This document shows, piece after piece, positions 10,010 to 64,000 of a stretch of 64,000 bases of DNA. Numbering within the stretch: the stretch's first letter is position 1; each line of letters opens with the position of its first letter. A program made the position numbers and the translations under genes. The notes beneath the pieces were generated by a model, which did no database searches, was not told where the DNA came from, and saw only the letters and a program-made list of their open reading frames with translations. Location: assembly GCA_965204375.1 (NCBI GenBank), contig OZ241986.1, forward strand, positions 4,128,001-4,192,000. The letters run 5' to 3'. The stretch is from Candidatus Latescibacterota bacterium. Lineage in GTDB: Bacteria; Latescibacterota; UBA2968.

Positions 10010-10031
10010 TTTGTTTTAATCGCGTGTAGTC

Positions 10032-10072
10032 AAAAACCTCTGGATCGCGGCTCAACACCATGCCGCGATGAC
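10032..10072. repeat. Palindromic REP-like element CTGGATCGCGG...CCGCGATGAC
   Basis: Hairpin; copies at 13202 (half), 42136 and 55462. Confidence 0.85.
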
Positions 10073-10127
10073 GATTTAGTTGATAGATCGGGACGAATGT
10101 CAACATTTTCTTGCTTATCGTCGTCCT

Positions 10128-13100: not shown

Positions 13101-13192
13101 TGTCACGCTCCTTGTCAACATGATCTATTCATATCGCAAGTTATGATAAACTCTTACACGCTTAAAAGCCATATCATTTTTTGGCAGTCAAC

Positions 13193-13305
13193 AAAACCCT
13201 CCTGGATCGCGGCCATAAGAAGTGAGAAGGCCACCCAACACCTCTCACGTCTCGCGTTTTACGTTTCACCTGCCTTTCACACTTCACACTTCCTACTTCA
13301 CACTT
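13193..13305. repeat. Half CTGGATCGCGG element plus degenerate heptamer-arm element
   Basis: AAGAAGTGAGAAGGCCACCCAACACC ... (ACTTCAC)n. Confidence 0.75.
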
Positions 13306-19944: not shown

Positions 19945-20151
19945 ATGCAACTCCCAACAGTGGAAAACAAACTTTCCGAGTTTGACGCCCGCTTGAGTCG
20001 TATTGAAGGTGTCATTGAGCAGATGAACACGCGCTTGAATGGTGTTGAGCAAGGCCAGCGTGAAATTTTGTCATGGATTCGCTGGCTTGTTGGAATCCAG
20101 ATCACAACCTTGTTGACCCTCGGAACGCTCATTCTGTTCAAACTCGGATAA
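19945..20151 (+). CDS. Small coiled-coil protein with C-terminal TM helix (DUF1640-like)
   Basis: GGAG RBS; paralog at 26067-26354. Confidence 0.7.
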   Translation: MQLPTVENKLSEFDARLSRIEGVIEQMNTRLNGVEQGQREILSWIRWLVGIQITTLLTLGTLILFKLG

Positions 20152-20157
20152 TAGCAG

Positions 20158-20198
20158 AAAAAAAAGGCTCCTGAAGATATGATCTCCAGGAGCCTTTA
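20158..20198. terminator. Intrinsic terminator hairpin between convergent genes
   Basis: AAAGGCTCCTG-N13-CAGGAGCCTTT with an A-run on the left side. Confidence 0.7.
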
Positions 20199-20208
20199 TA
20201 CATTCCAT

Positions 20209-20276
20209 TTCCTCCTTCACACTTCCTCCTTCACACTTCCTCCTTCACACTTCCTACTTCACACTTCTCACTTCAC
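20209..20276. repeat. Heptamer array (ACTTCAC/CTTCCTC) overlapping the stop codon of gene 20268-21146
   Basis: Directly visible; gene ends GTG AAG TGA inside the array. Confidence 0.85.
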
Positions 20277-21146
20277 CACCCGCGTTGTCTCGCCATCGGA
20301 CTCCAGCAGGGGCAACTGGCCCCCGTGATGGACCCCGGGACCGTACAAAACCGCTTGTTGTTCTGCCGTCAACTCACTCACCCAATCGCCATAGCGTTCC
20401 TGGGGCGTAAAATACTTGCCCACAGCGCGCGCCGCTGCGCGAGAAGCGTACTTATAAAGCACAGAACGCCGCTCCCCATCGCTGCGCCACGGCAGCGTGC
20501 CATGCGTCATCGTCTCCGCAAAAAAGAGCACATCGCCCGCTTGCATCACAGGTTGATAAACCAGACCCATATCGTCCTCTACAGAACGCACCTCAGCGGG
20601 TGTAGGCTCGGCTGTCTTATGACTCCCCGGCACACAGGCAAAACCACCATCGCCCTCATTCACATCCGTCAATTGCCACGCCACAGTAATACCCCGACAG
20701 AAAATCTTTCCATTCTGCTGGTGATACCACACCGACTGGCTAAACGGCTCGCCACCGCCGTGCAGTGTATGGCCCTCTGCACCCTTATGCGCGCTAATCA
20801 ACAGCGGACCGTGATCCAGGCGAAAACCCTTGCCACTAAACTCATTCAAACGACTCACCACAACCGGATGAACGAGCAACTTCCGAAACGGCTCGCGATA
20901 GGGTTCGGGCCAGCCCAACATACCCGTAAGCTCGCGCCGCCCCTCCTTCCCAGTAAGCGCGGACGAACCCCGCGCCAAACCGCCATCTTCAATAGACCGC
21001 GTCCTGATCTCATCGCCATAGTGATCAATCACATCATTACACGCCTTGACCTCATCCGCAGACAGAGCACCTCGCACGACCAGATAACCGCGCAGGTCAA
21101 AAAAGTACTTCTCCTCTTCACTCACTGTATAAAGGCTATTACCCAT
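20268..21146 (-). CDS. PhyH-family Fe(II)/2OG oxygenase (HxG variant)
   Basis: FDLRGYL, TLHGGG, GGFACVPGSHK, THGTLPW, RR. Confidence 0.85.
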   Translation of the reverse strand: MGNSLYTVSEEEKYFFDLRGYLVVRGALSADEVKACNDVIDHYGDEIRTRSIEDGGLARGSSALTGKEGRRELTGMLGWPEPYREPFRKLLVHPVVVSRLNEFSGKGFRLDHGPLLISAHKGAEGHTLHGGGEPFSQSVWYHQQNGKIFCRGITVAWQLTDVNEGDGGFACVPGSHKTAEPTPAEVRSVEDDMGLVYQPVMQAGDVLFFAETMTHGTLPWRSDGERRSVLYKYASRAAARAVGKYFTPQERYGDWVSELTAEQQAVLYGPGVHHGGQLPLLESDGETTRVVK

Positions 21147-32042: not shown

Positions 32043-32060
32043 CCACAGGAGTTATCAGTA

Positions 32061-32128
32061 TAGGGGCGAAACATGTTTAGCCCTTCACACTTCACACTTC
32101 ACACTTCACACTTCACACTTCACACTTC
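32061..32128. repeat. GTAG-type REP-like hairpin followed by an (ACTTCAC)n array ending just before the next ATG
   Basis: TAGGGGCGAAACATGTTTAGCCCT then 7-mers. Confidence 0.8.
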
Positions 32129-32130
32129 CC

Positions 32131-43509: not shown

Positions 43510-44835
43510 ATGAACGACCAACCAAACATCTTATTTATGCACTCGCACAACACCGGAACCTATATTGAACCTTACGGACACGCCGTACCAACGCCACACC
43601 TGCAGCAACTGGCAGAACAAGGCGTACTATTTCGGCGGGCGTATGCCACAGCCCCCACCTGTTCGCCCAGCAGAGCCAGCTTCTTAACCGGCATGTACCC
43701 CCATACCTGTGGCATGACAGGCCTTGCACACCGCGGCTTTGCCATGACGAATTACGACTGGCATGCAGCCCGCATCTTCAAGACACATGGCTATTTTACC
43801 GCAACCGCTGGCGTGGAACACACCGCACCGGACCTGGACACCATTGGATACCGCGAAATCCTCTCCGGACTGGACACAAATTACCCCGGACAGCCCAAAT
43901 GGATCGAACCCGCGGATGCCGTCGTAGAATTCTTAAAAAACGCCCCCCAACACCCCTTCTTCCTCAACCTCGGCTTAAACGAAACGCACCGACCATTTCA
44001 CAGTGCCGAACCCGACAAATACCCCGCAGAACGCGAACAATACTGCATTCCCCCCCGTCCCCTGCCCGACACACCGGAAACGCGCGCCGACACAGCCGAC
44101 TACAAAGCCTCTGCGCGCATCATGGACAACCACTACGGCAACGTACTCACAGCACTCGAAGAAACCGGCCTATCAGACAACACCCTCGTATTCTGCTTTG
44201 CCGATCACGGCCTGCAATTCCCGCGCAACATGTGCAACCTCACAGACCACGGCATCGGCGTGTACCTCATCATACGCGGACCCGGCTTTGAAGGCGGAAA
44301 AACCCTAAACGCGATGGTCAGCTTGATGGACCTCTTACCCACGGCATATCGCGCTGCCGGCATTGAAATACCCGACCACGTACAGGGAAAATCTCTACAT
44401 CCTCTGATAGACGAGGACCGCCACCGGGAAGAAATCTTTTCAGAAGTCTCTTATCACGCCGCGTATGAACCCATGCGAAGCATCCGCACGGAGCGATACA
44501 AATACATTCGGCGATACGACAACCGCGACAAACTCGTATTGCCCAACGTGGATGACACCCCCACAAAAGCCTTCTTACTCAACCAAAACTGGGAAAAATT
44601 GCCGCGAGATCAGGAAATGTTATACGATCTTATATTCGACCCCGATGAAACGCACAACATCATCGACCGGGCAGACATGGCACCTGTGCGAAAAGATCTG
44701 AGCCATCGATTGTACGCATGGATGAAAGAAACGCATGATCCCCTGTTGCCAGACGGACACGTCGCTGCGCCGGGTGGTTCTAAAGTCAACAACTCCGATG
44801 GCCGTTCGCCGAAAGAGGTACCGGAGGAAGTGTGA
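43510..44835 (+). CDS. Cys-type sulfatase
   Basis: PNILF, TCSPSRAS, THRPF, ADHG. Confidence 0.92.
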   Translation: MNDQPNILFMHSHNTGTYIEPYGHAVPTPHLQQLAEQGVLFRRAYATAPTCSPSRASFLTGMYPHTCGMTGLAHRGFAMTNYDWHAARIFKTHGYFTATAGVEHTAPDLDTIGYREILSGLDTNYPGQPKWIEPADAVVEFLKNAPQHPFFLNLGLNETHRPFHSAEPDKYPAEREQYCIPPRPLPDTPETRADTADYKASARIMDNHYGNVLTALEETGLSDNTLVFCFADHGLQFPRNMCNLTDHGIGVYLIIRGPGFEGGKTLNAMVSLMDLLPTAYRAAGIEIPDHVQGKSLHPLIDEDRHREEIFSEVSYHAAYEPMRSIRTERYKYIRRYDNRDKLVLPNVDDTPTKAFLLNQNWEKLPRDQEMLYDLIFDPDETHNIIDRADMAPVRKDLSHRLYAWMKETHDPLLPDGHVAAPGGSKVNNSDGRSPKEVPEEV

Positions 44836-45102
44836 AGGAGGAAGTGTGAAGGAGGAAGTGTGAAGGAGGAAGTGTGAAGGAGGAAGTGTGAAGGAGGAAG
44901 TGTGAAGTGTGAAGTGTGAAGGAGGAAGTGTGAAGGAGGAAGTGTGAAGTGTGAAGTGTGAAGGAGGAAGTGTGAAGGAGGAAGTGTGAAGGAGGAAGTG
45001 TGAAGGAGGAAGTGTGAAGGAGGAAGTGTGAAGGAGGAAGTGTGAAGGAGCACCAGCCTCTGGGAGTTGGGCGGGGCCTTCTCACTTCTCACTTCTAACT
45101 TT
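44823..45102 (-). repeat. Heptamer-arm element in reverse orientation with an about 225-bp (AGGAGGAAGTGTGA)n arm
   Basis: Array begins in the last codons GAG GAA GTG TGA; core GCACCAGCCTCTGGGAGTTGGGCGGGGCC; short (CTTCTCA) arm. Confidence 0.92.
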
Positions 45103-53887: not shown

Positions 53888-55318
53888 ATGCCAGAACAAC
53901 CGAACATCCTCCTCTTCATCAGCGACCAACAGCGCACGGACACCTTGAAATGTTACGGCAACGACTGGATACAATCGCCGCATCAAGACGCCCTTGCAGA
54001 ACGCAGCTTCGTCTTTGAAAACACCTACGTCACCCAACCCGTATGCACCCCTGCCCGCGGATCGCTCATGACCGGACTATACCCGCACAACCACAAATGC
54101 ATGGTCAACCGCGACATATTACACGACGAAATCCCATCCATCGCAGAAATGCTACCCGACACCTATCGGAAAGCCATGTTTGGAAAATGGCACCTCGGCG
54201 ACGACTCCGTGCGACAACACGGCTTTGACGAATGGATCAGCACAGAAGACGACCACCGCAACAAATACTCCCGCCCCGGCCTGCCCTTCAGCAGCTATTA
54301 CTACTGGATGAAAGAACAAGGCATAGAACCCCAAAACAACAGCGCCACTGGAGAAATCATCTTCTCACCGCGCCAGCGCTCCCAACTCCCCGCAGAATAC
54401 CAGATGGGCACCTTCATCGCCAACCACTCCGAGCGATTCATCCGGGAAAACACACACCGCCCCTGGCTCCTCGTATTCAGCACATTTGAGCCACACCCCC
54501 CAATGACCGGACCCTACGACGGCATGTACGACCCCGATGCCCTGCCCGTTGGCCCCACCTTCATCAAAAAACCAGAAGGACACGCCCTGTTTAACCGCGC
54601 GCGTGCAGAACACTACCTCAGCAACAGGGTTGAAGGTCAAGACATGCGACAAGAAGCATCCTGGCGAAAACTGCGGGCGCAATACTACGGCAACGTAAAA
54701 ATCATCGACGACGCCATAGGCCGCATGGTACAGACACTGGAAGAAACCGGACAAATGGAAAACACCATCTTTGCCGTCACCAGCGACCACGGCGAAATGG
54801 CAGGCGACCACGCCATGTTCGAAAAACGCGCATTCTACGAAGAATCCGCGCGCGTACCCATGATCTTAAGCGTCCCGTGGCTCACACAATCGCAAAAGCG
54901 CATCGACGGCGTCTTTGGACACGCGGACCTGATCGCCACCCTCATAGAATTGGCCAATCAGCCACGCCTCCAAACCCTCCCGGGCCGCCCGTGTGCCGAC
55001 GTCTTAAACGGCGAAACCGACCTGCGCAATCACACCGCATTCATGGAATGGAACGGCATTGGCGACCGCAACCTGGGCAACCCCAAAATCAACCTCATGG
55101 CCACCTTGCCCTGGCGCTGTGCCGTAACCGGAGACCGGTGGAAACTCAACTTATGTGCCGGCGACCAGTGCGAATTATTCGACCTGAACAACGACCCTTA
55201 TGAAGAAACCAACCTCTATGACGACCCTGCGCACCGCGACCGGGCGCGGGAAATCGCGGCTCGCATACGACTGTGGCAACACGAAACAAACGACCACGCG
55301 CCATTGCCTGCGATCTGA
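53888..55318 (+). CDS. Cys-type sulfatase
   Basis: PNILLFISDQQR, CTPAR, GKWHL, EPHPP, SDHGEM. Confidence 0.93.
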   Translation: MPEQPNILLFISDQQRTDTLKCYGNDWIQSPHQDALAERSFVFENTYVTQPVCTPARGSLMTGLYPHNHKCMVNRDILHDEIPSIAEMLPDTYRKAMFGKWHLGDDSVRQHGFDEWISTEDDHRNKYSRPGLPFSSYYYWMKEQGIEPQNNSATGEIIFSPRQRSQLPAEYQMGTFIANHSERFIRENTHRPWLLVFSTFEPHPPMTGPYDGMYDPDALPVGPTFIKKPEGHALFNRARAEHYLSNRVEGQDMRQEASWRKLRAQYYGNVKIIDDAIGRMVQTLEETGQMENTIFAVTSDHGEMAGDHAMFEKRAFYEESARVPMILSVPWLTQSQKRIDGVFGHADLIATLIELANQPRLQTLPGRPCADVLNGETDLRNHTAFMEWNGIGDRNLGNPKINLMATLPWRCAVTGDRWKLNLCAGDQCELFDLNNDPYEETNLYDDPAHRDRAREIAARIRLWQHETNDHAPLPAI

Positions 55319-55516
55319 ATCAGGATTCTCAGGATTTAAGGATGAACAGGATGAAAGGCAAAAAGCGAAAGGCAAAAGGCGAAAGGCGTCTGAATCAGGA
55401 TTCTCAGGATTTAAGGATGAACAGGATGAAAGGCAAAAAGCGAAAGGCAAAATCAAAACCTCTGGATCGCGGCTTACACCCTGCCGCGATGACAAGTGCG
55501 CTCATCACGCCCCTAC
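55314..55516. repeat. Composite element with a 75-bp tandem duplication; supplies the sulfatase TGA
   Basis: TCTGAATCAGGATTCTCAGG.. at 55314 and 55389, then CTGGATCGCGG palindrome and GCCCCTAC. Confidence 0.88.
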
Positions 55517-57248: not shown

Positions 57249-57881
57249 ATGCCCGGCGTCATATTCTGGGATGTCGATACCCAATACGACTTCATCATGC
57301 CCGACGGCAAACTCTACGTCACCGCATCGGAAAAGCGCTTGCCGAACCTCAAAAAACTCACAGACCATGCGAGACAACGGGGCATCCCCATCTACGGCTC
57401 GGTTGACAACCACCAGATAACCGACCCCGAAATCTCCGACAACCCGGACTTTCTGGAAACCTTTCCGCCCCACTGCATCGCCGGCACAGAAGGACAAAAA
57501 AAAGTACCCGAAACCCAACCGCAAAACCCCCTCTGGATCGACCCGGACGCCCCGGGCGACCTCATCAGCCGGGTACAAAAACACCGCGGAGAAATCATCT
57601 TTCGCAAACAGCGCTTCGACGTCTTCACCAACCCCAACGTCGAACCTGTACTCAACGCCATCAAACCCGACCGCATCGTCCTCTACGGCGTAGCCCTCGA
57701 CGTATGCAACGCCTATGCCATCAACGGCTTCTTAAACCGCAACACAGCGCCTATCCAGCTCGTCCTGGACGCCACACAAGCCATCGACCCCGAACGCGGC
57801 GACCGCATGGTAGATAACTGGCAACAACAGGGCGTCGAAATTGTATCCACAGATAAAATCATAAAGGCAAGTGAGAAGTAA
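57249..57881 (+). CDS. Isochorismatase family (nicotinamidase-like) hydrolase
   Basis: DVDTQYDF..PDG.L, FPPHC..GT.G, K..FDVF, GVALDVC. Confidence 0.9.
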   Translation: MPGVIFWDVDTQYDFIMPDGKLYVTASEKRLPNLKKLTDHARQRGIPIYGSVDNHQITDPEISDNPDFLETFPPHCIAGTEGQKKVPETQPQNPLWIDPDAPGDLISRVQKHRGEIIFRKQRFDVFTNPNVEPVLNAIKPDRIVLYGVALDVCNAYAINGFLNRNTAPIQLVLDATQAIDPERGDRMVDNWQQQGVEIVSTDKIIKASEK

Positions 57882-57989
57882 GAAGTAAGAAGTGAGAAGG
57901 CCCCGCTCCACCACCCAAAAGCTGGTGCCTTATCCCACTTCACACTTCACACTTCACACTTCACACTTCACACTTCACACTTCACACTT
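57869..57989 (+). repeat. Heptamer-arm element (GAAGTRA)n-core-(ACTTCAC)n
   Basis: Core GGCCCCGCTCCACCACCCAAAAGCTGGTGCCT; supplies the TAA of the upstream gene. Confidence 0.92.
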
Positions 57990-57993
57990 TACT

Positions 57994-59778
57994 ATGAACG
58001 TCTTCCTTCGCCTCATCACCTATATCCGCCCTTATTTGGGCCGCGTGAGCATCGGCATCGGCGCCACCCTCCTCATCATCGGCCTCGACGCCGTACAACC
58101 CCTGCTCATGCGCGACGTCATCGACGACATCTTAACCCCCTACTTCACAGAAGGGCGTTACATCGGCGGCGACTTCGCCGACACAAAAATCGCAGCCGAC
58201 TTCGACCTGCTCCAATTCTACGCCCTGCTCCTCCTCGGCGTCTATATCCTCCGCACCATCTTCAGCTTCATCAACCGCTACCTCCTCAGCCGAACGGGAC
58301 AGGACATCCTCTTCAGCCTCCGCGTCCAGGTCTATGACCACCTCCAGCACCTGGGCCTGCGCTTTTACAACGACCGCAGCACAGGCGAACTCATGTCGCG
58401 CGTAACCGCCGACGTCGAATCCCTTCAAAACACCGTCACAGACACCCTGGAACGCGTACTCATCGACATCGCAACCGTCATCATCTTCGGCAGCATCCTC
58501 TTTGCCCTCAGCTTTGAACTCGCCCTCATCACCCTGTTGCCCATGCCCATATACAGCATCCTCATCATCTTCTACAACCGCACCATACGCCCCTATTACA
58601 CCATGGCGCGCGAACGCATCGCCGACATCAGCGCCCTCTTGCAAGACAACCTCTCCGGCATCCGCGTCATCAAATGCTTTGCCCGCGAAGGCCACGAACT
58701 CTCTCGCTTCACCCAAAAATGCAGAGCCTTCCTCACCATCAGCATCACCATCATCAAAACCCGCGTCGCCTTCTTCCCCCTCACCCGATTCATCATCTCC
58801 ATGGGCCCCCTCCTCGTCCTCCTCTTTGGCGGGCGACAAATCATCTCGGGCGACCTCACCATCGGCACCCTCTTCGCCTTTCAAAGCTACCTCTGGCAAT
58901 TCTACAGACCCGTAGAAAGCCTCACCCGCATCAACGACACCATCGTGCGCGCCTCTGCCTCAGCGCGTCGCATCTTTGAAATCCTGGACACCCAACCCGA
59001 AATAAAAGACACCCCCAACGCGCGCCCCTTTGACCGCCTGAACGGCAGCGTTGAATTTCGAAACGTCACCTTTGCCTACGAACACGGCCCCCCCGTCCTC
59101 CAGGGCGTATCCCTCAGCGCACAGTCCGGCCAACTCATCGGCCTCGTTGGACCCAGCGGCGCGGGCAAAACCACCATCATCAACCTCATCTGCCGCTTCT
59201 ACGACCCCGATTCTGGGACCGTGAGCGTTGACGGCCATGACCTCAAAAACATGCAACGCGCATCCCTGCGCAGCCAAATCGGCATGGTCTTACAAGAACC
59301 CTTCCTCTTCAACGGAACCATCCGCGAAAACATCGCTTATGGCAAACTCAACGCCACCGAAACCGACATCATCAACGCCGCCATGATGGCCAACGCGCAC
59401 GACTTCGTCTGCGGATTCCCGGACGCTTATGACACCCACATAGGCGAACGGGGCGTGCGCTTATCCGGCGGTGAAAAACAGCGCATCTCCATCGCCCGCG
59501 CCATCCTCAACGACCCGCGCATCCTCATCTTAGACGAAGCCACATCTTCTGTTGACACCGAAACCGAAATGCTCATCCAAAAAGCACTCGAACGCCTCAT
59601 GGAAGGCCGCACCACCTTTGCGATCGCCCATCGCCTATCCACCGTGCGCCGCGCCGACTGCCTCTACGTCATCGACCGCGGCAAAATCGTCGAATACGGC
59701 ACACACACCCAGCTACTCGCCAGCGACGGCCTCTACGCCCGCCTGTGCGACATGCAATTCGCGTTGGAAGAAGCGTGA
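57994..59778 (+). CDS. ABC transporter ATP-binding/permease (exporter type)
   Basis: TM domain, GPSGAGKT, LSGGEKQR, ILDEATS, IAHRLST. Confidence 0.95.
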   Translation: MNVFLRLITYIRPYLGRVSIGIGATLLIIGLDAVQPLLMRDVIDDILTPYFTEGRYIGGDFADTKIAADFDLLQFYALLLLGVYILRTIFSFINRYLLSRTGQDILFSLRVQVYDHLQHLGLRFYNDRSTGELMSRVTADVESLQNTVTDTLERVLIDIATVIIFGSILFALSFELALITLLPMPIYSILIIFYNRTIRPYYTMARERIADISALLQDNLSGIRVIKCFAREGHELSRFTQKCRAFLTISITIIKTRVAFFPLTRFIISMGPLLVLLFGGRQIISGDLTIGTLFAFQSYLWQFYRPVESLTRINDTIVRASASARRIFEILDTQPEIKDTPNARPFDRLNGSVEFRNVTFAYEHGPPVLQGVSLSAQSGQLIGLVGPSGAGKTTIINLICRFYDPDSGTVSVDGHDLKNMQRASLRSQIGMVLQEPFLFNGTIRENIAYGKLNATETDIINAAMMANAHDFVCGFPDAYDTHIGERGVRLSGGEKQRISIARAILNDPRILILDEATSSVDTETEMLIQKALERLMEGRTTFAIAHRLSTVRRADCLYVIDRGKIVEYGTHTQLLASDGLYARLCDMQFALEEA

Positions 59779-59891
59779 TGAAGTAAGAAGTAAGAAGTGA
59801 GAAGTAAGAAGTAAGAAGGCCCGCCCCAACCACCCAAAGGCTGGTACTTCCTCCTTCCTCCTTCACACTTCAACCTTCACACTTCACACTT
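59779..59891 (+). repeat. Heptamer-arm element
   Basis: (GAAGTRA)5 GGCCCGCCCCAACCACCCAAAGGCTGGT (CTTCCTC/CTTCACA)n fills the whole intergenic gap. Confidence 0.92.
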
Positions 59892-59895
59892 GCCT

Positions 59896-60438
59896 ATGGA
59901 CCTCATGATACAACCACTCATCCCAGAAACCATTGACTTATGTCAAAACGGCGACAGCCTGATCCTCTTTGCCGATGGAGAAGAACTGTACATCGATCAC
60001 ATCGTGCGCTGCTTTCCCTTTTCCACGCCCGACCAATGGATCAGCCTCCGCGACCGAGACGGAACCGAACTCGGCCTCTTGCCCACACTCGACGGACTAA
60101 ATGCACAATCGCGGGCACGCGTTGAAGAACACCTCAAAGACCGCTATGACATCCCCAAAATCCAGACCATACTCAACATCGAAAGCAACAAAGAAGGCGG
60201 CACAACCTGGGACATCGACACCGACGCGGGACCCATGAACTTCACAATCCGCGGCGATCAGAATCTCAACCTCAACGCATTTCCCGAAATCGTATTCACC
60301 GATGGCATAACGCGCAAACGCTACAAAATTCCCGACTACACCAAACTCGACCGCGCCAGCCAAAAAATCGCCCGCGCGTACCTGCCCATGAGCTCTCGCC
60401 ATTACTCAGGCCGCCGCGGAGGCAGGAGCAGAAGGTGA
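59896..60438 (+). CDS. DUF1854 family protein
   Basis: VRCFPFSTPDQWISL.D.DG.ELG, Y.IPKI..I, W.IDTD.G, D....RY.IPD...LD..S. Confidence 0.85.
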   Translation: MDLMIQPLIPETIDLCQNGDSLILFADGEELYIDHIVRCFPFSTPDQWISLRDRDGTELGLLPTLDGLNAQSRARVEEHLKDRYDIPKIQTILNIESNKEGGTTWDIDTDAGPMNFTIRGDQNLNLNAFPEIVFTDGITRKRYKIPDYTKLDRASQKIARAYLPMSSRHYSGRRGGRSRR

Positions 60439-60581: not shown

Positions 60582-60839
60582 TCAATAATGATAACGAGCC
60601 TGTAGAAAATTAATGCGCTCATGGTCAACGTGATAGACAATGCGATGTTCGCGTGTCAAACGACGAGACCAGGTATTGCGGTCAAAGTATTTGAGTGGTT
60701 CTGGTTTGCCAATCCCTTTGAAAGGATCTCGCAGGATAGCTTCCACAAGTGTCAAGACGCGAAGGGCTATCTTGCGATCAGTTTGAACCCAATAGTGCAG
60801 GTCTGCACGAAATTCTGGATGAAAAACAGCATCGCGCAT
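60582..60839 (-). CDS. yoeB: Txe/YoeB toxin
   Basis: PFKGIGKPEPLK...WSRRLTREHRIVY...QARYHY. Confidence 0.95.
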   Translation of the reverse strand: MRDAVFHPEFRADLHYWVQTDRKIALRVLTLVEAILRDPFKGIGKPEPLKYFDRNTWSRRLTREHRIVYHVDHERINFLQARYHY

Positions 60840-60841
60840 TA

Positions 60842-61129
60842 TTATTCCAGCCCAACCTCTCGACGCAAGTCATCAACGGATTGAGCGGGTTCTGTTCCGG
60901 CTTTGGCTCGGTTTAGAGCAGTTGCCAATCGTTCCGCATTTTTAGGTGAGCTGAGAAGATGAGCGGTTTCTATAAGGCTGGAAAGCTCGGACACAGAAAT
61001 CAGAGCGACATCTTCATGCCCCCGACGAGTGATAATAACGTAATCATTTTCATCCGTCACATCTTTGCAAAGACTGGCAAGCCTGGCGCGTGCCTGAGTA
61101 CAGGTAAATGTTCTGGTCATATATTTCAT
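60842..61129 (-). CDS. yefM: YefM antitoxin
   Basis: ARARL...VIITRRG...ETAHLLSSPKNAERL. Confidence 0.93.
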   Translation of the reverse strand: MKYMTRTFTCTQARARLASLCKDVTDENDYVIITRRGHEDVALISVSELSSLIETAHLLSSPKNAERLATALNRAKAGTEPAQSVDDLRREVGLE

Positions 61130-61150
61130 AATAATATCCAGCGAAAATCC

Positions 61151-61179
61151 CTACTTCTCACTTCCTACTTCTCACTTCC
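61151..61179. repeat. Short heptamer array overlapping the pafA-like stop codon
   Basis: Minus strand AAG TGA GAAGTAG GAAGTGA GAAGTAG. Confidence 0.75.
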
Positions 61180-62629
61180 CCCTTCTCAACCCCATCATCT
61201 TCGACGCGATCTCGACCTCCTCGGCAAATGCCTCTGCCGCCTCGTCATACGTATCAAACGGATCGCGGAAACTCAAATGGTATTCATTTTCCAAATACAC
61301 CGAATCCCAATCCACAATATACCGCACCCGATTTTGCGACAACGTCTTCACCATCGCCGCCCGCGCCTTTGCCCGCGTATCAGCCGGAGGCGTTCCACAA
61401 GCCTCTTCAACGCGATCATCGGTCAACACGCGCTTCATCTTACCCTGTTGCTCCAGATCGAAATACAACCCGCGATTGGGATCGATATTGTGATACTCCA
61501 GATCCAAACTCTGCAACCACGGATCGTCCCAACCCAAATTCTCCGACTCGCGAAACGCATCCAACAACCACTTCTTCGCCACCCAGTCCACACGATCTGT
61601 CAACTGCATCGGATCGGATTCCAGATCATCAAGTGTGCGCTCCCACTCAGCCAGCACCCAATCCGACTCCTCATCCAGACCTCTCAAATGGCGCTGCGAC
61701 AAATCCAGATAAACGCGCTGAATATCAATCGCCGAAATAGACCGCCCATTCTGCCGGTCCAGAATCCACTTATGTGTTGGATCGCGCGAAATCTCCTTCA
61801 ACGCCCATACCGGATCACCCAACCCCAGATCCTGGGGAAAAATCTTCCGCTCTAAGAGATTCAGCACCATCGCAGTCGTGCCAACCTTCAGCGCCGTCGC
61901 ATACTCCGACATATTTGAATCGCCCACCAGAAGGTGCAAACGGCGGTACTTGCTGTGATCGGCCAGCGGTTCATCTCGCGTATTGATAATCGCGCGAGAA
62001 AACTGAATCCATTGATAAATCTCTGTCACAATATGATCCGCACGCTGAGAAATCTGGAAATTCACCGGATCTTCCCGGTTGTCGGCATCGCGCGCACTGT
62101 GCCCATAATAATAAAAACTGTCGTCATAACTGCCCACGCGACCTGCACCGCAAAAAATTTGGCGCGTCACCAAAAACGGCAACAGCGCGGGAATGACAAC
62201 CGTTGAAAACGGCACATTGCGCCTGACCAGATAATTTTCGTGACAGCCAAACGTCGCGCCCGTATAGTGATCGATATTATTCTTCAAAAACGACGCTTCT
62301 TTAGCCAACCCCAGCGCGTGCAATGCCCGATGCAAAATGAGATCGCCAGCCCGATCAAAAGCCACAATATCCCACAACCCCATACACTCCGGCGTCGCGT
62401 ATTCCAAATGCCCCATATCGATATAAACCCGCCCGGCATTAAACAAAAACCCCCCATTGCCCGGGGGTTCATCCCGTCCGCGATAGTGAATATCCACAAT
62501 CCCGATACGGTCAACGTGAAAAATATGATCCTTAACCTTCACCGAAATGGTATCGGGACTCACAAAACCCTCGTGCTCGGGAGCCAAACACCCATACTCG
62601 GTTTCTATGCCAAAAATGCGATCTCTCAT
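61172..62629 (-). CDS. pafA: PafA/PafA2-family Pup(UBact)-protein ligase
   Basis: RIFGIETEYG, HLEYATPEC, KNN, GCHENYL, SQRADHI, TRDEP, RLHLLVGDSNMSE. Confidence 0.85.
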   Translation of the reverse strand: MRDRIFGIETEYGCLAPEHEGFVSPDTISVKVKDHIFHVDRIGIVDIHYRGRDEPPGNGGFLFNAGRVYIDMGHLEYATPECMGLWDIVAFDRAGDLILHRALHALGLAKEASFLKNNIDHYTGATFGCHENYLVRRNVPFSTVVIPALLPFLVTRQIFCGAGRVGSYDDSFYYYGHSARDADNREDPVNFQISQRADHIVTEIYQWIQFSRAIINTRDEPLADHSKYRRLHLLVGDSNMSEYATALKVGTTAMVLNLLERKIFPQDLGLGDPVWALKEISRDPTHKWILDRQNGRSISAIDIQRVYLDLSQRHLRGLDEESDWVLAEWERTLDDLESDPMQLTDRVDWVAKKWLLDAFRESENLGWDDPWLQSLDLEYHNIDPNRGLYFDLEQQGKMKRVLTDDRVEEACGTPPADTRAKARAAMVKTLSQNRVRYIVDWDSVYLENEYHLSFRDPFDTYDEAAEAFAEEVEIASKMMGLRRGK

Positions 62630-62649
62630 GGGGCCTCTCAATGATAGAT

Positions 62650-62721
62650 GGGCGAGGCATGCCTCGCCCCTACAATGAACCACCATCCGCAACAACGGGC
62701 AGGTTTAAAACCTGCCCCTAC
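62650..62721. repeat. Two GTAG-type REP-like hairpins; one supplies the prcA TAG
   Basis: GGGCGAGGCATGCCTCGCCCCTAC; GGGCAGGTTTAAAACCTGCCCCTAC. Confidence 0.85.
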
Positions 62722-63509
62722 AATATAAACGGCGCCAGCGCGGGCGCAATTTCTTCTGCATCGACATTGCGGTACTTGTTTTTACCCACCCGCGACCGCT
62801 CGAGCACCACCGCCTCCACCTCCAGATCCACCAACTCCGTCACAAGCACATCAACCACATCGACCTCCCCAGCCACCTGATCCAACGCGTCGGCATCGGT
62901 GGGCACCTCGTCCATCTTCCCAATCCATCGCCCCATCGCCCATGCGCGAAGCGCGGCACCTGCGGCATCAGACAGAGACAACGCCTCCGTATCCAAACCC
63001 GACAACTCGCGCACCATCATCACATCCGCCTCCACAACGCCCCCCACAGCAGCACACCTCTCGTGCCGGTGAAACGCGCCATCGTAATCCACAGAATAAA
63101 AAATGTGCGCGCCCTCCTGCCCATCCAACTCCGCGAGAAGCACCCGCGCCAAAAAAGGAGACCGCACCACATCGTCAAACCCCGCCTTAATCGCAGGACC
63201 GAGACCAAAATACACAATCTGACGCAGTGTCACATCGTCTTCCGAATAATTAAACCCAATCGAATGCGCCATATCAATCGCAGCCTGCCGCAGATTCTCG
63301 ATATCCGTCGAATGCCCAATCCCCGCGAGCAAGATGCGATCGTACACCTCAAACACCTTTTGCTGACTCTGCGACAGCGTCAACAACAAAATCCCATCCT
63401 CGTAACCCACCCCCACGACCGGACTACCCTGCCGGATCTGATCCTCAATATAATCTCGCCGATTCGCAACCGCCTCTGCCCAGCGATACGGCTCATCAGA
63501 CAACATCAT
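62718..63509 (-). CDS. prcA: 20S proteasome alpha subunit
   Basis: RRDYI....GSPVV...Y.DGILL, KVFEVYDRI..AGIG, YDG, EAVVLER. Confidence 0.88.
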   Translation of the reverse strand: MMLSDEPYRWAEAVANRRDYIEDQIRQGSPVVGVGYEDGILLLTLSQSQQKVFEVYDRILLAGIGHSTDIENLRQAAIDMAHSIGFNYSEDDVTLRQIVYFGLGPAIKAGFDDVVRSPFLARVLLAELDGQEGAHIFYSVDYDGAFHRHERCAAVGGVVEADVMMVRELSGLDTEALSLSDAAGAALRAWAMGRWIGKMDEVPTDADALDQVAGEVDVVDVLVTELVDLEVEAVVLERSRVGKNKYRNVDAEEIAPALAPFIL

Positions 63510-63695
63510 GCGCGTCCCGCCTCCTCCCAATTAAACTTTCTCAATCTTCGTATCCTTCGTGTCCTTCGTGTCCTTCGTGGATACTGAATCATGCGCGTCC
63601 CGCCTCCTCCCAATTAAACCTTTTCAATCTTCGTATCCTTCGTGTCCTTCGTGTCCTTCGTGGATACTGAATCATGCGCGTCCCGCCGCCTCCCC
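63506..63695 (-). repeat. 83-bp tandem duplication at the prcB-prcA junction; each unit encodes a 28-aa Arg-rich ORF
   Basis: CATGCGCGTCCCGCC at 63507, 63590 and 63673; ORFs 63589-63675 and 63506-63592 linked by ATGA overlaps. Confidence 0.9.
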
Positions 63696-64000
63696 ATCCA
63701 CATATTGAACATAAAGCTGTCGCAACGCCTCGGTCTCAATCTCCGCCAGACCCGACGCCGTAATCGTCTTCACCGACGGAAAAATATCAGCCGACCGCTC
63801 GTATCGCCCCGTCGCCGAATCGTATTCCGACGCCGTATCCAGAAGCTGAAGCGCGTGTCCAATTGCCGCATCGCGATCCATATCCACAAACCGCCGACCG
63901 CCCCAGCGATTCAAATAATACATCGCACCGCGAATCGCCGGCGACCCCGACCCCGTCGTCGTAAAATCGGCACTCTCGAACTGCGCCCCCAGCGCATCGT
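63672..64000 (-). CDS. prcB: 20S proteasome beta subunit, C-terminal part (runs off the window)
   Basis: DALGAQFE...TGSGS, AL..A...DSATG; upstream of prcA. Confidence 0.85.
   Translation of the reverse strand, partial: DALGAQFESADFTTTGSGSPAIRGAMYYLNRWGGRRFVDMDRDAAIGHALQLLDTASEYDSATGRYERSADIFPSVKTITASGLAEIETEALRQLYVQYVDGEAAGRA

Follow-up and report, generated by a model that had tools for sequence, protein, structure and literature searches.

Two chained mini-ORFs in a tandem duplication between the proteasome genes prcB and prcA of a Candidatus Latescibacterota bacterium

Anatomy of the prcB-prcA junction

In a 64-kb stretch of contig OZ241986.1 from a Candidatus Latescibacterota bacterium (the window, meaning the whole stretch that was analysed), two Arg-rich open reading frames (ORFs) of 28 codons each, here called mini-ORFs, lie between prcB and prcA, the genes for the proteasome beta and alpha subunits. 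They run through two nearly identical 83-nt units that have no counterpart in related genomes. The window ends inside prcB, and all of the features listed below are on the minus strand.

63672-63998 (-): 3' part of prcB (proteasome beta subunit), a fragment reaching the window end at 64000; stop codon TGA at 63672-63674; from the ORF list and Pfam
63671-63697 (-): direct-repeat copy 1, the native prcB end with Shine-Dalgarno (SD) sequence and ATGAT; 25/27 identity to the other two copies
63589-63675 (-): mini-ORF 1, 28 codons; overlapped at its ATG by the TGA of prcB and at its TGA by the ATG of mini-ORF 2
63615-63670 (-): insert copy 1, 56 nt, with the nonamer array 63629-63662 inside; no counterpart in relatives
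63588-63614 (-): direct-repeat copy 2, 27 nt; the 23 nt at its 3' end identical to the junction of 13 relatives
63506-63592 (-): mini-ORF 2, 28 codons; its TGA overlaps the prcA ATG
63532-63587 (-): insert copy 2, 56 nt, with the nonamer array 63546-63579 inside; from repeat searches
63505-63531 (-): direct-repeat copy 3, the SD and ATGAT now serving prcA; from comparison of the junction with relatives
62718-63509 (-): prcA (proteasome alpha subunit), 263 aa; N-terminus conserved over 32 homologues
61172-62629 (-): Pup-ligase-family gene (PafA/Dop-like) downstream of prcA; ATG at 62629

The coordinates and reading frames given for the mini-ORFs in a preliminary description of this DNA were confirmed by the minus-strand sequence and the ORF list; the list itself gives mini-ORF 2 from an upstream TTG, as 63506-63613. 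The two units, at 63670-63588 and 63587-63505, are identical at 81 of 83 positions. The predicted peptides are MIQYPRRTRRTRRIRRLKRFNWEEAGRA (mini-ORF 1) and MIQYPRRTRRTRRIRRLRKFNWEEAGRA (mini-ORF 2), and the two base differences between the mini-ORFs change Lys-Arg in the first to Arg-Lys in the second. Every junction in the series prcB, mini-ORF 1, mini-ORF 2 and prcA is an ATGA overlap, and the full layout of a coupled pair was found at all three: the cistrons are co-directional, they share a 4-nt ATGA, and the 3' end of the upstream cistron carries an SD.

Tandem Repeats Finder reported 63505-63694 as a repeat with a period of 83, 2.3 copies, 97% matches and a score of 359, and also reported the nonamer arrays at 63546-63579 and 63629-63662. 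The repeat search returned the 83-nt unit twice (98%) and a 27-nt direct repeat three times, and there were no inverted repeats in 63440-63760. Within the window the nonamer, CACGAAGGA, is confined to the insert, with six matches where 0.44 were expected, and the 18-nt double nonamer had six matches where 0.04 were expected, so that chance is far from accounting for the repeat. The units are nearly identical, run head-to-tail between direct repeats and are missing at the ancestral junction, which is the structure of a tandem duplication or minisatellite.

One unit consists of 56 nt that are foreign to the locus and a copy of the junction that is 27 nt long and exact over 24 nt, which bears out the preliminary observation that an 83-bp unit duplicates about 23 bp of the prcB end. 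The 23 nt at the 3' end of the unit are 100% identical to the prcB/prcA junction in 13 relatives. The copy attached to prcB matches at 22 of 23 positions, and it carries a derived A-to-C change by which the relatives' Glu-Glu becomes Glu-Ala in PrcB. Among the 18 nearest relatives, the third-codon position is variable in only two of the last eight codons of prcB, compared with 26 of the preceding 33, as would be expected if the SD and the initiation region of prcA lie in these bases. Some 10 nt ahead of the ATG the module has GGAGG twice. The duplicated piece is the putative translation-initiation module of prcA (SD and ATGA), conserved at the nucleotide level. The units inherit their start, stop and SD mechanically, because the 27-nt junction module was copied with them, and prcA has kept its own SD and ATG intact after the insertion.

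The empty site and the operon in related genomes

The junction was compared across 80 loci from species-representative genomes, mostly metagenome-assembled genomes of Latescibacterota, which were retrieved with a profile of prcA homologues and total about 1.5 Mb. Both genes were placed by tblastn in 75 of the 80 loci; the remaining five had no prcB match to the 108-aa fragment in the window. In 48 of the 75, prcB and prcA overlap directly in an ATGA without an insert. These include all of L001-L030, in which prcA is 56-96% identical to that of the window, and thus the closest relative, L002 (prcA 96% identical). The genes of the nearest relatives have 92-96% DNA identity to the window. The other 27 loci came mostly from Verrucomicrobiota and Poribacteria and had spacers of 0-33 nt, with a few of 51-96 nt. 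Neither the 83-nt unit nor anything like it was found in any of the 75 loci with both genes. The empty site that the preliminary description had proposed to look for, a direct ATGA overlap at orthologous junctions, was therefore present. Because it occurs in L001-L030, including L002, the insertion is recent and lineage-specific, and it arose after this lineage had separated from the nearest relatives that have been sequenced.

Several database entries for prcA were considered as possible insertion alleles, and none is one: P0015, P0051, P0078 and P0092 are frameshifted, and P0032 and P0095 have internal starts. The four frameshifted entries are near-identical and change frame part-way, which suggests that there are error-prone assemblies in this clade.

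Assignment of prcA is supported by a Pfam Proteasome match (E 6.7e-10) and by a match to NCBIfam 20S_bact_alpha below the curated cutoff. The Pfam match of the prcB fragment was weak and below cutoff; the fragment is 88.9-98.1% identical to the prcB end of L001-L018 (tblastn), and the full-length prcB of L002 matches Pfam Proteasome at 6e-25. The gene downstream of prcA matches Pfam Pup_ligase (E 2e-145) and, below their curated cutoffs, the NCBIfam PafA/Dop models; these family scans used a start one codon upstream of its ATG, at 62632. The gene order could be read in L002:

L002, 5453-7225: AAA ATPase with proteasomal OB domains
L002, 7349-8872: Pup-ligase-family gene
L002, 9006-9197: UBact (PF20513 at 1.1e-19; NF033388 at 9.5e-23)
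L002, 9201-10004: prcB
L002, 10001-10798: prcA
L002, after prcA: second Pup-ligase-family gene, by homology to window 61172-62629

The UBact ORF of L002 has a Gly-Glu C-terminus and is directly upstream of prcB, and the true modifier gene of the window thus probably lies upstream of prcB, past the window end. The motif by which Pup and UBact are conjugated is a C-terminal Gly-Glu/Gln. The mini-ORFs end in Gly-Arg-Ala, sit downstream of prcB and gave no family match, while the L002 UBact, which served as control, did match. The mini-ORFs were accordingly rejected as Pup or UBact, as the preliminary description had also concluded.

The window also encodes a pair made up of a YefM-like antitoxin and a YoeB-like toxin (60582-61129, minus strand; Pfam 4e-17 and 6.8e-32). 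The pair follows closely on the proteasome operon, where the relatives show no alignment to the window.

Repeat-rich spacers and the origin of the insert

The spacers of the window are crowded with 7-14-nt tandem arrays, many of them with a GAAG/CTTC core, and with small hairpin modules.

1-184, 13122-13303, 20142-20324, 32043-32130, 44823-45050, 57860-57995, 59776-59896 and 61130-61171: spacer arrays

The array at 44823-45050 is a 14-mer repeated 16.3 times with GGAGG in each unit, and several spacer sites are composite elements in which opposed heptamer arrays surround a conserved core. GC-rich hairpin modules resembling REP elements, of at least two kinds, are dispersed through the window (62630-62717, 55455-55490 and 10010-10127) and occur in L011, L012 and L014; two of them lie in the 88-nt spacer between prcA and the Pup-ligase-family gene, where L001 has only about 8 nt. 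In relatives whose genes are 92-96% identical, the orthologous spacers contain entirely different short tandem repeat (STR) and hairpin modules. Literature searches on this phylum and system gave nothing on turnover of STRs and hairpins in spacers. Arrays of short tandemly repeated repetitive (STRR) heptamers are familiar from the spacers of cyanobacteria. The present spacers are similarly packed with arrays, and the core of the insert is such an array, but the phylum and the motifs are different and here the nonamer lies inside open frames.

A second fresh tandem duplication is present in the window at 55314-55452. Its 75-nt unit is 100% identical between copies and begins 4 nt before the stop codon of a gene. 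Each copy begins with that stop, and block coordinates suggest a single copy in L001.

Independent insertions have struck the prcB-prcA junction in the more distant relatives L049, L050 and L051. In L049 (9905-10003) the two genes are separated by a 96-nt spacer containing an STR-armed hairpin (-35.1 kcal/mol, z -5.31), in L050 (8369-8428) by a REP-like hairpin (z -3.74), and in L051 (9917-10000) by a 72-nt spacer whose predicted hairpin is no better than shuffles (z -0.76). All three inserts have stops in all three frames and leave no prcB/prcA overlap. Since they are closed in every frame, the operon can evidently live without coupling, and inserts at this junction need not keep a relay of ribosomes.

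The open frame of the insert was compared with a null in which every 40-120-nt segment of the window's other spacers, from both strands, was inserted in the same way. An open in-frame chain resulted for 52,938 of the 429,972 segments (12.3%), for 2,809 of 6,448 (43.6%) at a segment length of 58, and for 27.3% of 20,000 mononucleotide shuffles of the insert. Since start, stop and SD are copied, what is left to account for is the length of the unit modulo 3 and the lack of stops in the 56 foreign nt. By inspection, the nonamer is open in all six frames. Mini-ORF 2 is not independent evidence, because it is a copy of mini-ORF 1. The open, coupled frame is not beyond chance. The idea that the coupling is a designed feature thus found no support: the SD, ATG and TGA were copied from the junction, and an open frame is expected by chance at about 12% or more.

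These results are best explained by a recent, lineage-specific structural mutation rather than by a dedicated device, with the mini-ORFs as a by-product, and we hold this explanation to be likely. The locus is a real, tidy and evolutionarily ordinary variant. The ancestral state would have been the prcB/prcA ATGA overlap, in which the last 24 nt or so of prcB also provided the ribosome-binding region for prcA. We infer that 56 nt of STR-type DNA were inserted at this overlap together with a 24-27-nt duplication of the junction module, and that a single event of slippage during replication, or of unequal recombination, between the resulting direct repeats may then have given two 83-nt units; this order of events is the presumed one. 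The 28-codon cistrons are chained automatically, because the SD/ATG/TGA module was copied whole and the length of the unit, 83 nt, is 2 modulo 3. Much of this is as in other tandem duplications and minisatellites: the copies are head-to-tail (83 nt, 98%), they are bounded by 27-nt direct repeats, they are absent in relatives, and the window holds the other fresh example described above. The case differs in that the insert sits exactly on the stop-start overlap of an operon and each copy is a full mini-cistron, and in that the first step (56 nt of foreign DNA with duplication of the junction) is not explained by slippage alone.

For translation, the closest parallel is ATGA coupling. In termination-reinitiation as described by Huber et al. 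2019 (PMC6728339) and Huber et al. 2023 (PMC10666635), the two genes must overlap or lie very close together; in E. coli, 15 nt from the end of the upstream gene are sufficient, and a spacer of about 20 nt nearly abolishes reinitiation. The present locus shares with those systems its co-directional genes, whose products are subunits of a single heteromeric complex, the 4-nt overlap and an SD in the upstream end, and each mini-ORF junction keeps at least 24 nt of native upstream sequence. It differs in having three consecutive overlaps with two 28-codon spacer cistrons, a serial relay that we did not find described in the consulted parts of PMC6728339 and PMC10666635. Ribosomes ending prcB could reinitiate at mini-ORF 1 and pass onward to prcA, and prcA could also be started de novo at its intact SD. 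Translation of the mini-ORFs, through termination-reinitiation, de novo initiation at the copied SD or both, probably occurs as a by-product, and their peptides are most likely without a selected function. The net effect would be near-neutral and hence tolerated, two additional reinitiations and the runs of rare codons might cost some PrcA yield, and a purifying filter against variants that break coupling may have helped.

Several points weigh against this explanation. No donor for the 56 nt was found in the window or the 80 loci. Origin from the flanking genes was considered and rejected: in alignments to the 3' end of prcB and the 5' end of prcA on both strands, compared with 300 dinucleotide shuffles, the best p was 0.07, and the insert therefore has no significant similarity to the flanking genes (p at least 0.07). 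The flanking duplication of 24-27 nt is, to our knowledge, far longer than the target duplication of any transposase. The structure was seen in one assembly. From the chance of an open chain, a requirement to keep the coupling is favoured at most about 8x (1/0.12) over pure chance, which is suggestive and no more, and some selection for the relay could still have acted. Lastly, the STR of the insert is a nonamer, frame-neutral under slippage, while most STRs in the window are heptamers, and this could be a hint of a filter for coupling.

Alternative explanations and significance

The most far-reaching alternative is a serial ribosome relay, in which PrcA is made through two chained termination-reinitiation steps that pass through the Arg-rich, rare-codon mini-cistrons, giving a heritable stoichiometry dial that slippage can tune. 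We regard this as unlikely. A little less likely again is a translational tuning device, an idea also raised in the preliminary description. In this reading the relay would be slowed or aborted at runs of rare CGA, AGG and AGA codons, and the PrcB:PrcA ratio would track Arg-tRNA charging or the general state of translation. With codon usage taken from 33 ORFs of at least 250 aa, which come from a crude greedy ORF map rather than a gene finder, nine of the ten Arg codons in each mini-ORF are among the three rarest (AGG 0.07, AGA 0.09 and CGA 0.12 of Arg codons). Moreover, prcA is downstream of both mini-ORFs, and by inspection both the nonamer and the 83-nt unit can change in copy number without breaking the frame. 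The same rare codons are equally expected of non-coding STR DNA, however, and the codon usage of the mini-ORFs looks non-coding: an index of the codon adaptation type was 0.485 and 0.482 for the two mini-ORFs, compared with 0.68-0.83 for the 33 long ORFs, and none of the 459 gene windows of 30 codons (90 nt) scored as low.

Other evidence also fails to support tuning. The insert is absent from 75 of 75 related loci and so is not a conserved regulator, and prcA keeps an intact SD and ATG, so that a relay is not needed. Folding was no different from shuffles (z of 0.02 over the entire region and of -0.83 over a single unit), there was no Rfam match at E 1 or better for the insert region, and there were no promoter-like or terminator-like sites at the insert region. 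Conservation, an alternative RNA structure and a terminator, as expected of a leader peptide or attenuator, were all lacking here. Among regulatory mini-ORFs, the two-codon minigene of axe-txe lies inside its operon (PMC8708949). The present mini-ORFs resemble that minigene and leader-peptide attenuators in being short ORFs upstream of a cistron whose translation their frame or distance could affect. Those systems are conserved and have demonstrated effects, whereas the insert occurs in none of the relatives and lacks an attenuator structure.

A specialised, non-polar mobile element that inserts at stop-start overlaps and relays ribosomes through its own SD, ATG and TGA is improbable, although the locus has features that such an element would explain. 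The insertion lies exactly where relatives have an intact ATGA overlap, no overlap in the chain is broken and, since in E. coli 15 nt of the upstream gene end suffice (PMC10666635), a relay is feasible. On paper the architecture is indeed non-polar, as first proposed: no terminator-like or promoter-like site is present, and every cistron keeps its SD and ATGA. But the SD, ATG and TGA were copied from the host junction and not brought by the insert, an open frame has a chance of at least 12%, and the inserts of L049-L051 are closed in all frames.

Searches for further copies argue in the same direction. There was no second copy of the insert in the 64-kb window or in the 80 related loci, and no match in plasmid and phage collections. 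A blastn-short search with the unit and with a 58-nt insert against the window and the 80 loci returned only self matches and chance-level matches of 12-17 nt, and the exact 17-nt pattern of the insert occurred in none of the 80 loci. Other gene junctions of the form repeat, insert, repeat were sought in the window and L001-L023 as exact repeats of at least 18 nt, 30-400 nt apart, a scan that would miss imperfect repeats; it found only repeats internal to genes, STRs and dispersed hairpin modules. A CACGAAG-type motif in two spacers of L044 (2983-3040 and 12417-12475), a Latescibacterota genome of more distant relationship, was rejected as a further copy, being a different dispersed motif that shares only word content with the nonamer of the insert. 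Within the window and the loci, dispersed copies, terminal inverted repeats and a short target-site duplication, by which a miniature inverted-repeat transposable element (MITE) or other transposable element would be recognised, were all missing. With no second copy in these searches, no inverted repeats and a flanking duplication of 24-27 nt, the preliminary suggestion of an element that enters operons was not supported. Small repeat elements tolerated by their hosts include Rickettsia palindromic elements, which are inserted in frame, and REP, ERIC and Correia-type elements in operons, all of them multi-copy, palindromic families. The insert is like these in being short, non-autonomous and persistent without disrupting host expression; it is unlike them in occupying a single locus in the data examined and in having neither inverted repeats nor a stable fold.

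Duplication of a repeat-containing stretch as an artefact of assembly or sequencing is no more probable than a mobile element. The structure was seen in a single assembly, tandem repeats are prone to assembly error, and the frameshifted prcA entries of close relatives show that error-prone assemblies occur in this clade. The two units nevertheless differ by two substitutions, and the third, partial copy differs by two more, while artefactual duplications are normally identical. In addition, a single unit would still be an insertion relative to all relatives.

It is very improbable that the 28-aa Arg-rich peptides are themselves functional, for example as proteasome-associated or nucleic-acid-binding micro-proteins born de novo. 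Each mini-ORF acquired an ATG and a strong SD by copying, which makes translation likely, and the two substitutions swap Lys and Arg with the charge kept, but two differences are too few for a signal of selection and the codon usage is unlike that of genes. A search of 1.84 billion representatives gave no match to the 35-aa form of the ORF at E 0.001 or better, neither 28-aa ORF had a Pfam match at E 0.1 or better, the 35-aa form had none in NCBIfam, and nothing comparable is present in relatives.

Least credible of all is a CRISPR-like integration at an off-target site, in which a 27-nt 'repeat' was duplicated on either side of an inserted 'spacer', as Cas1-Cas2 integration duplicates its repeat: the geometry of three 27-nt repeats and two 56-nt inserts would fit, but a CRISPR-like array has identical repeats with different spacers, whereas these inserts are the same sequence (54/56), which points to tandem duplication rather than to two acquisitions, and 56 nt is long for a spacer and is here itself an STR.

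A recent structural mutation with by-product mini-ORFs, as favoured here, would make this strain-level variant a textbook illustration of how duplication of a stop-start junction automatically creates coupled mini-cistrons, and because it does so, insertion into a tightly coupled operon can be tolerable. If the relay does carry the translation of prcA, coupling would be known for chains as well as for single overlaps, there would be a documented case in which repeat DNA gave rise to new translated ORFs, and the locus would be a de novo birth of translated micro-ORFs caught in the act. Of more general interest is how very rapidly STR and hairpin modules turn over in the spacers of Latescibacterota.

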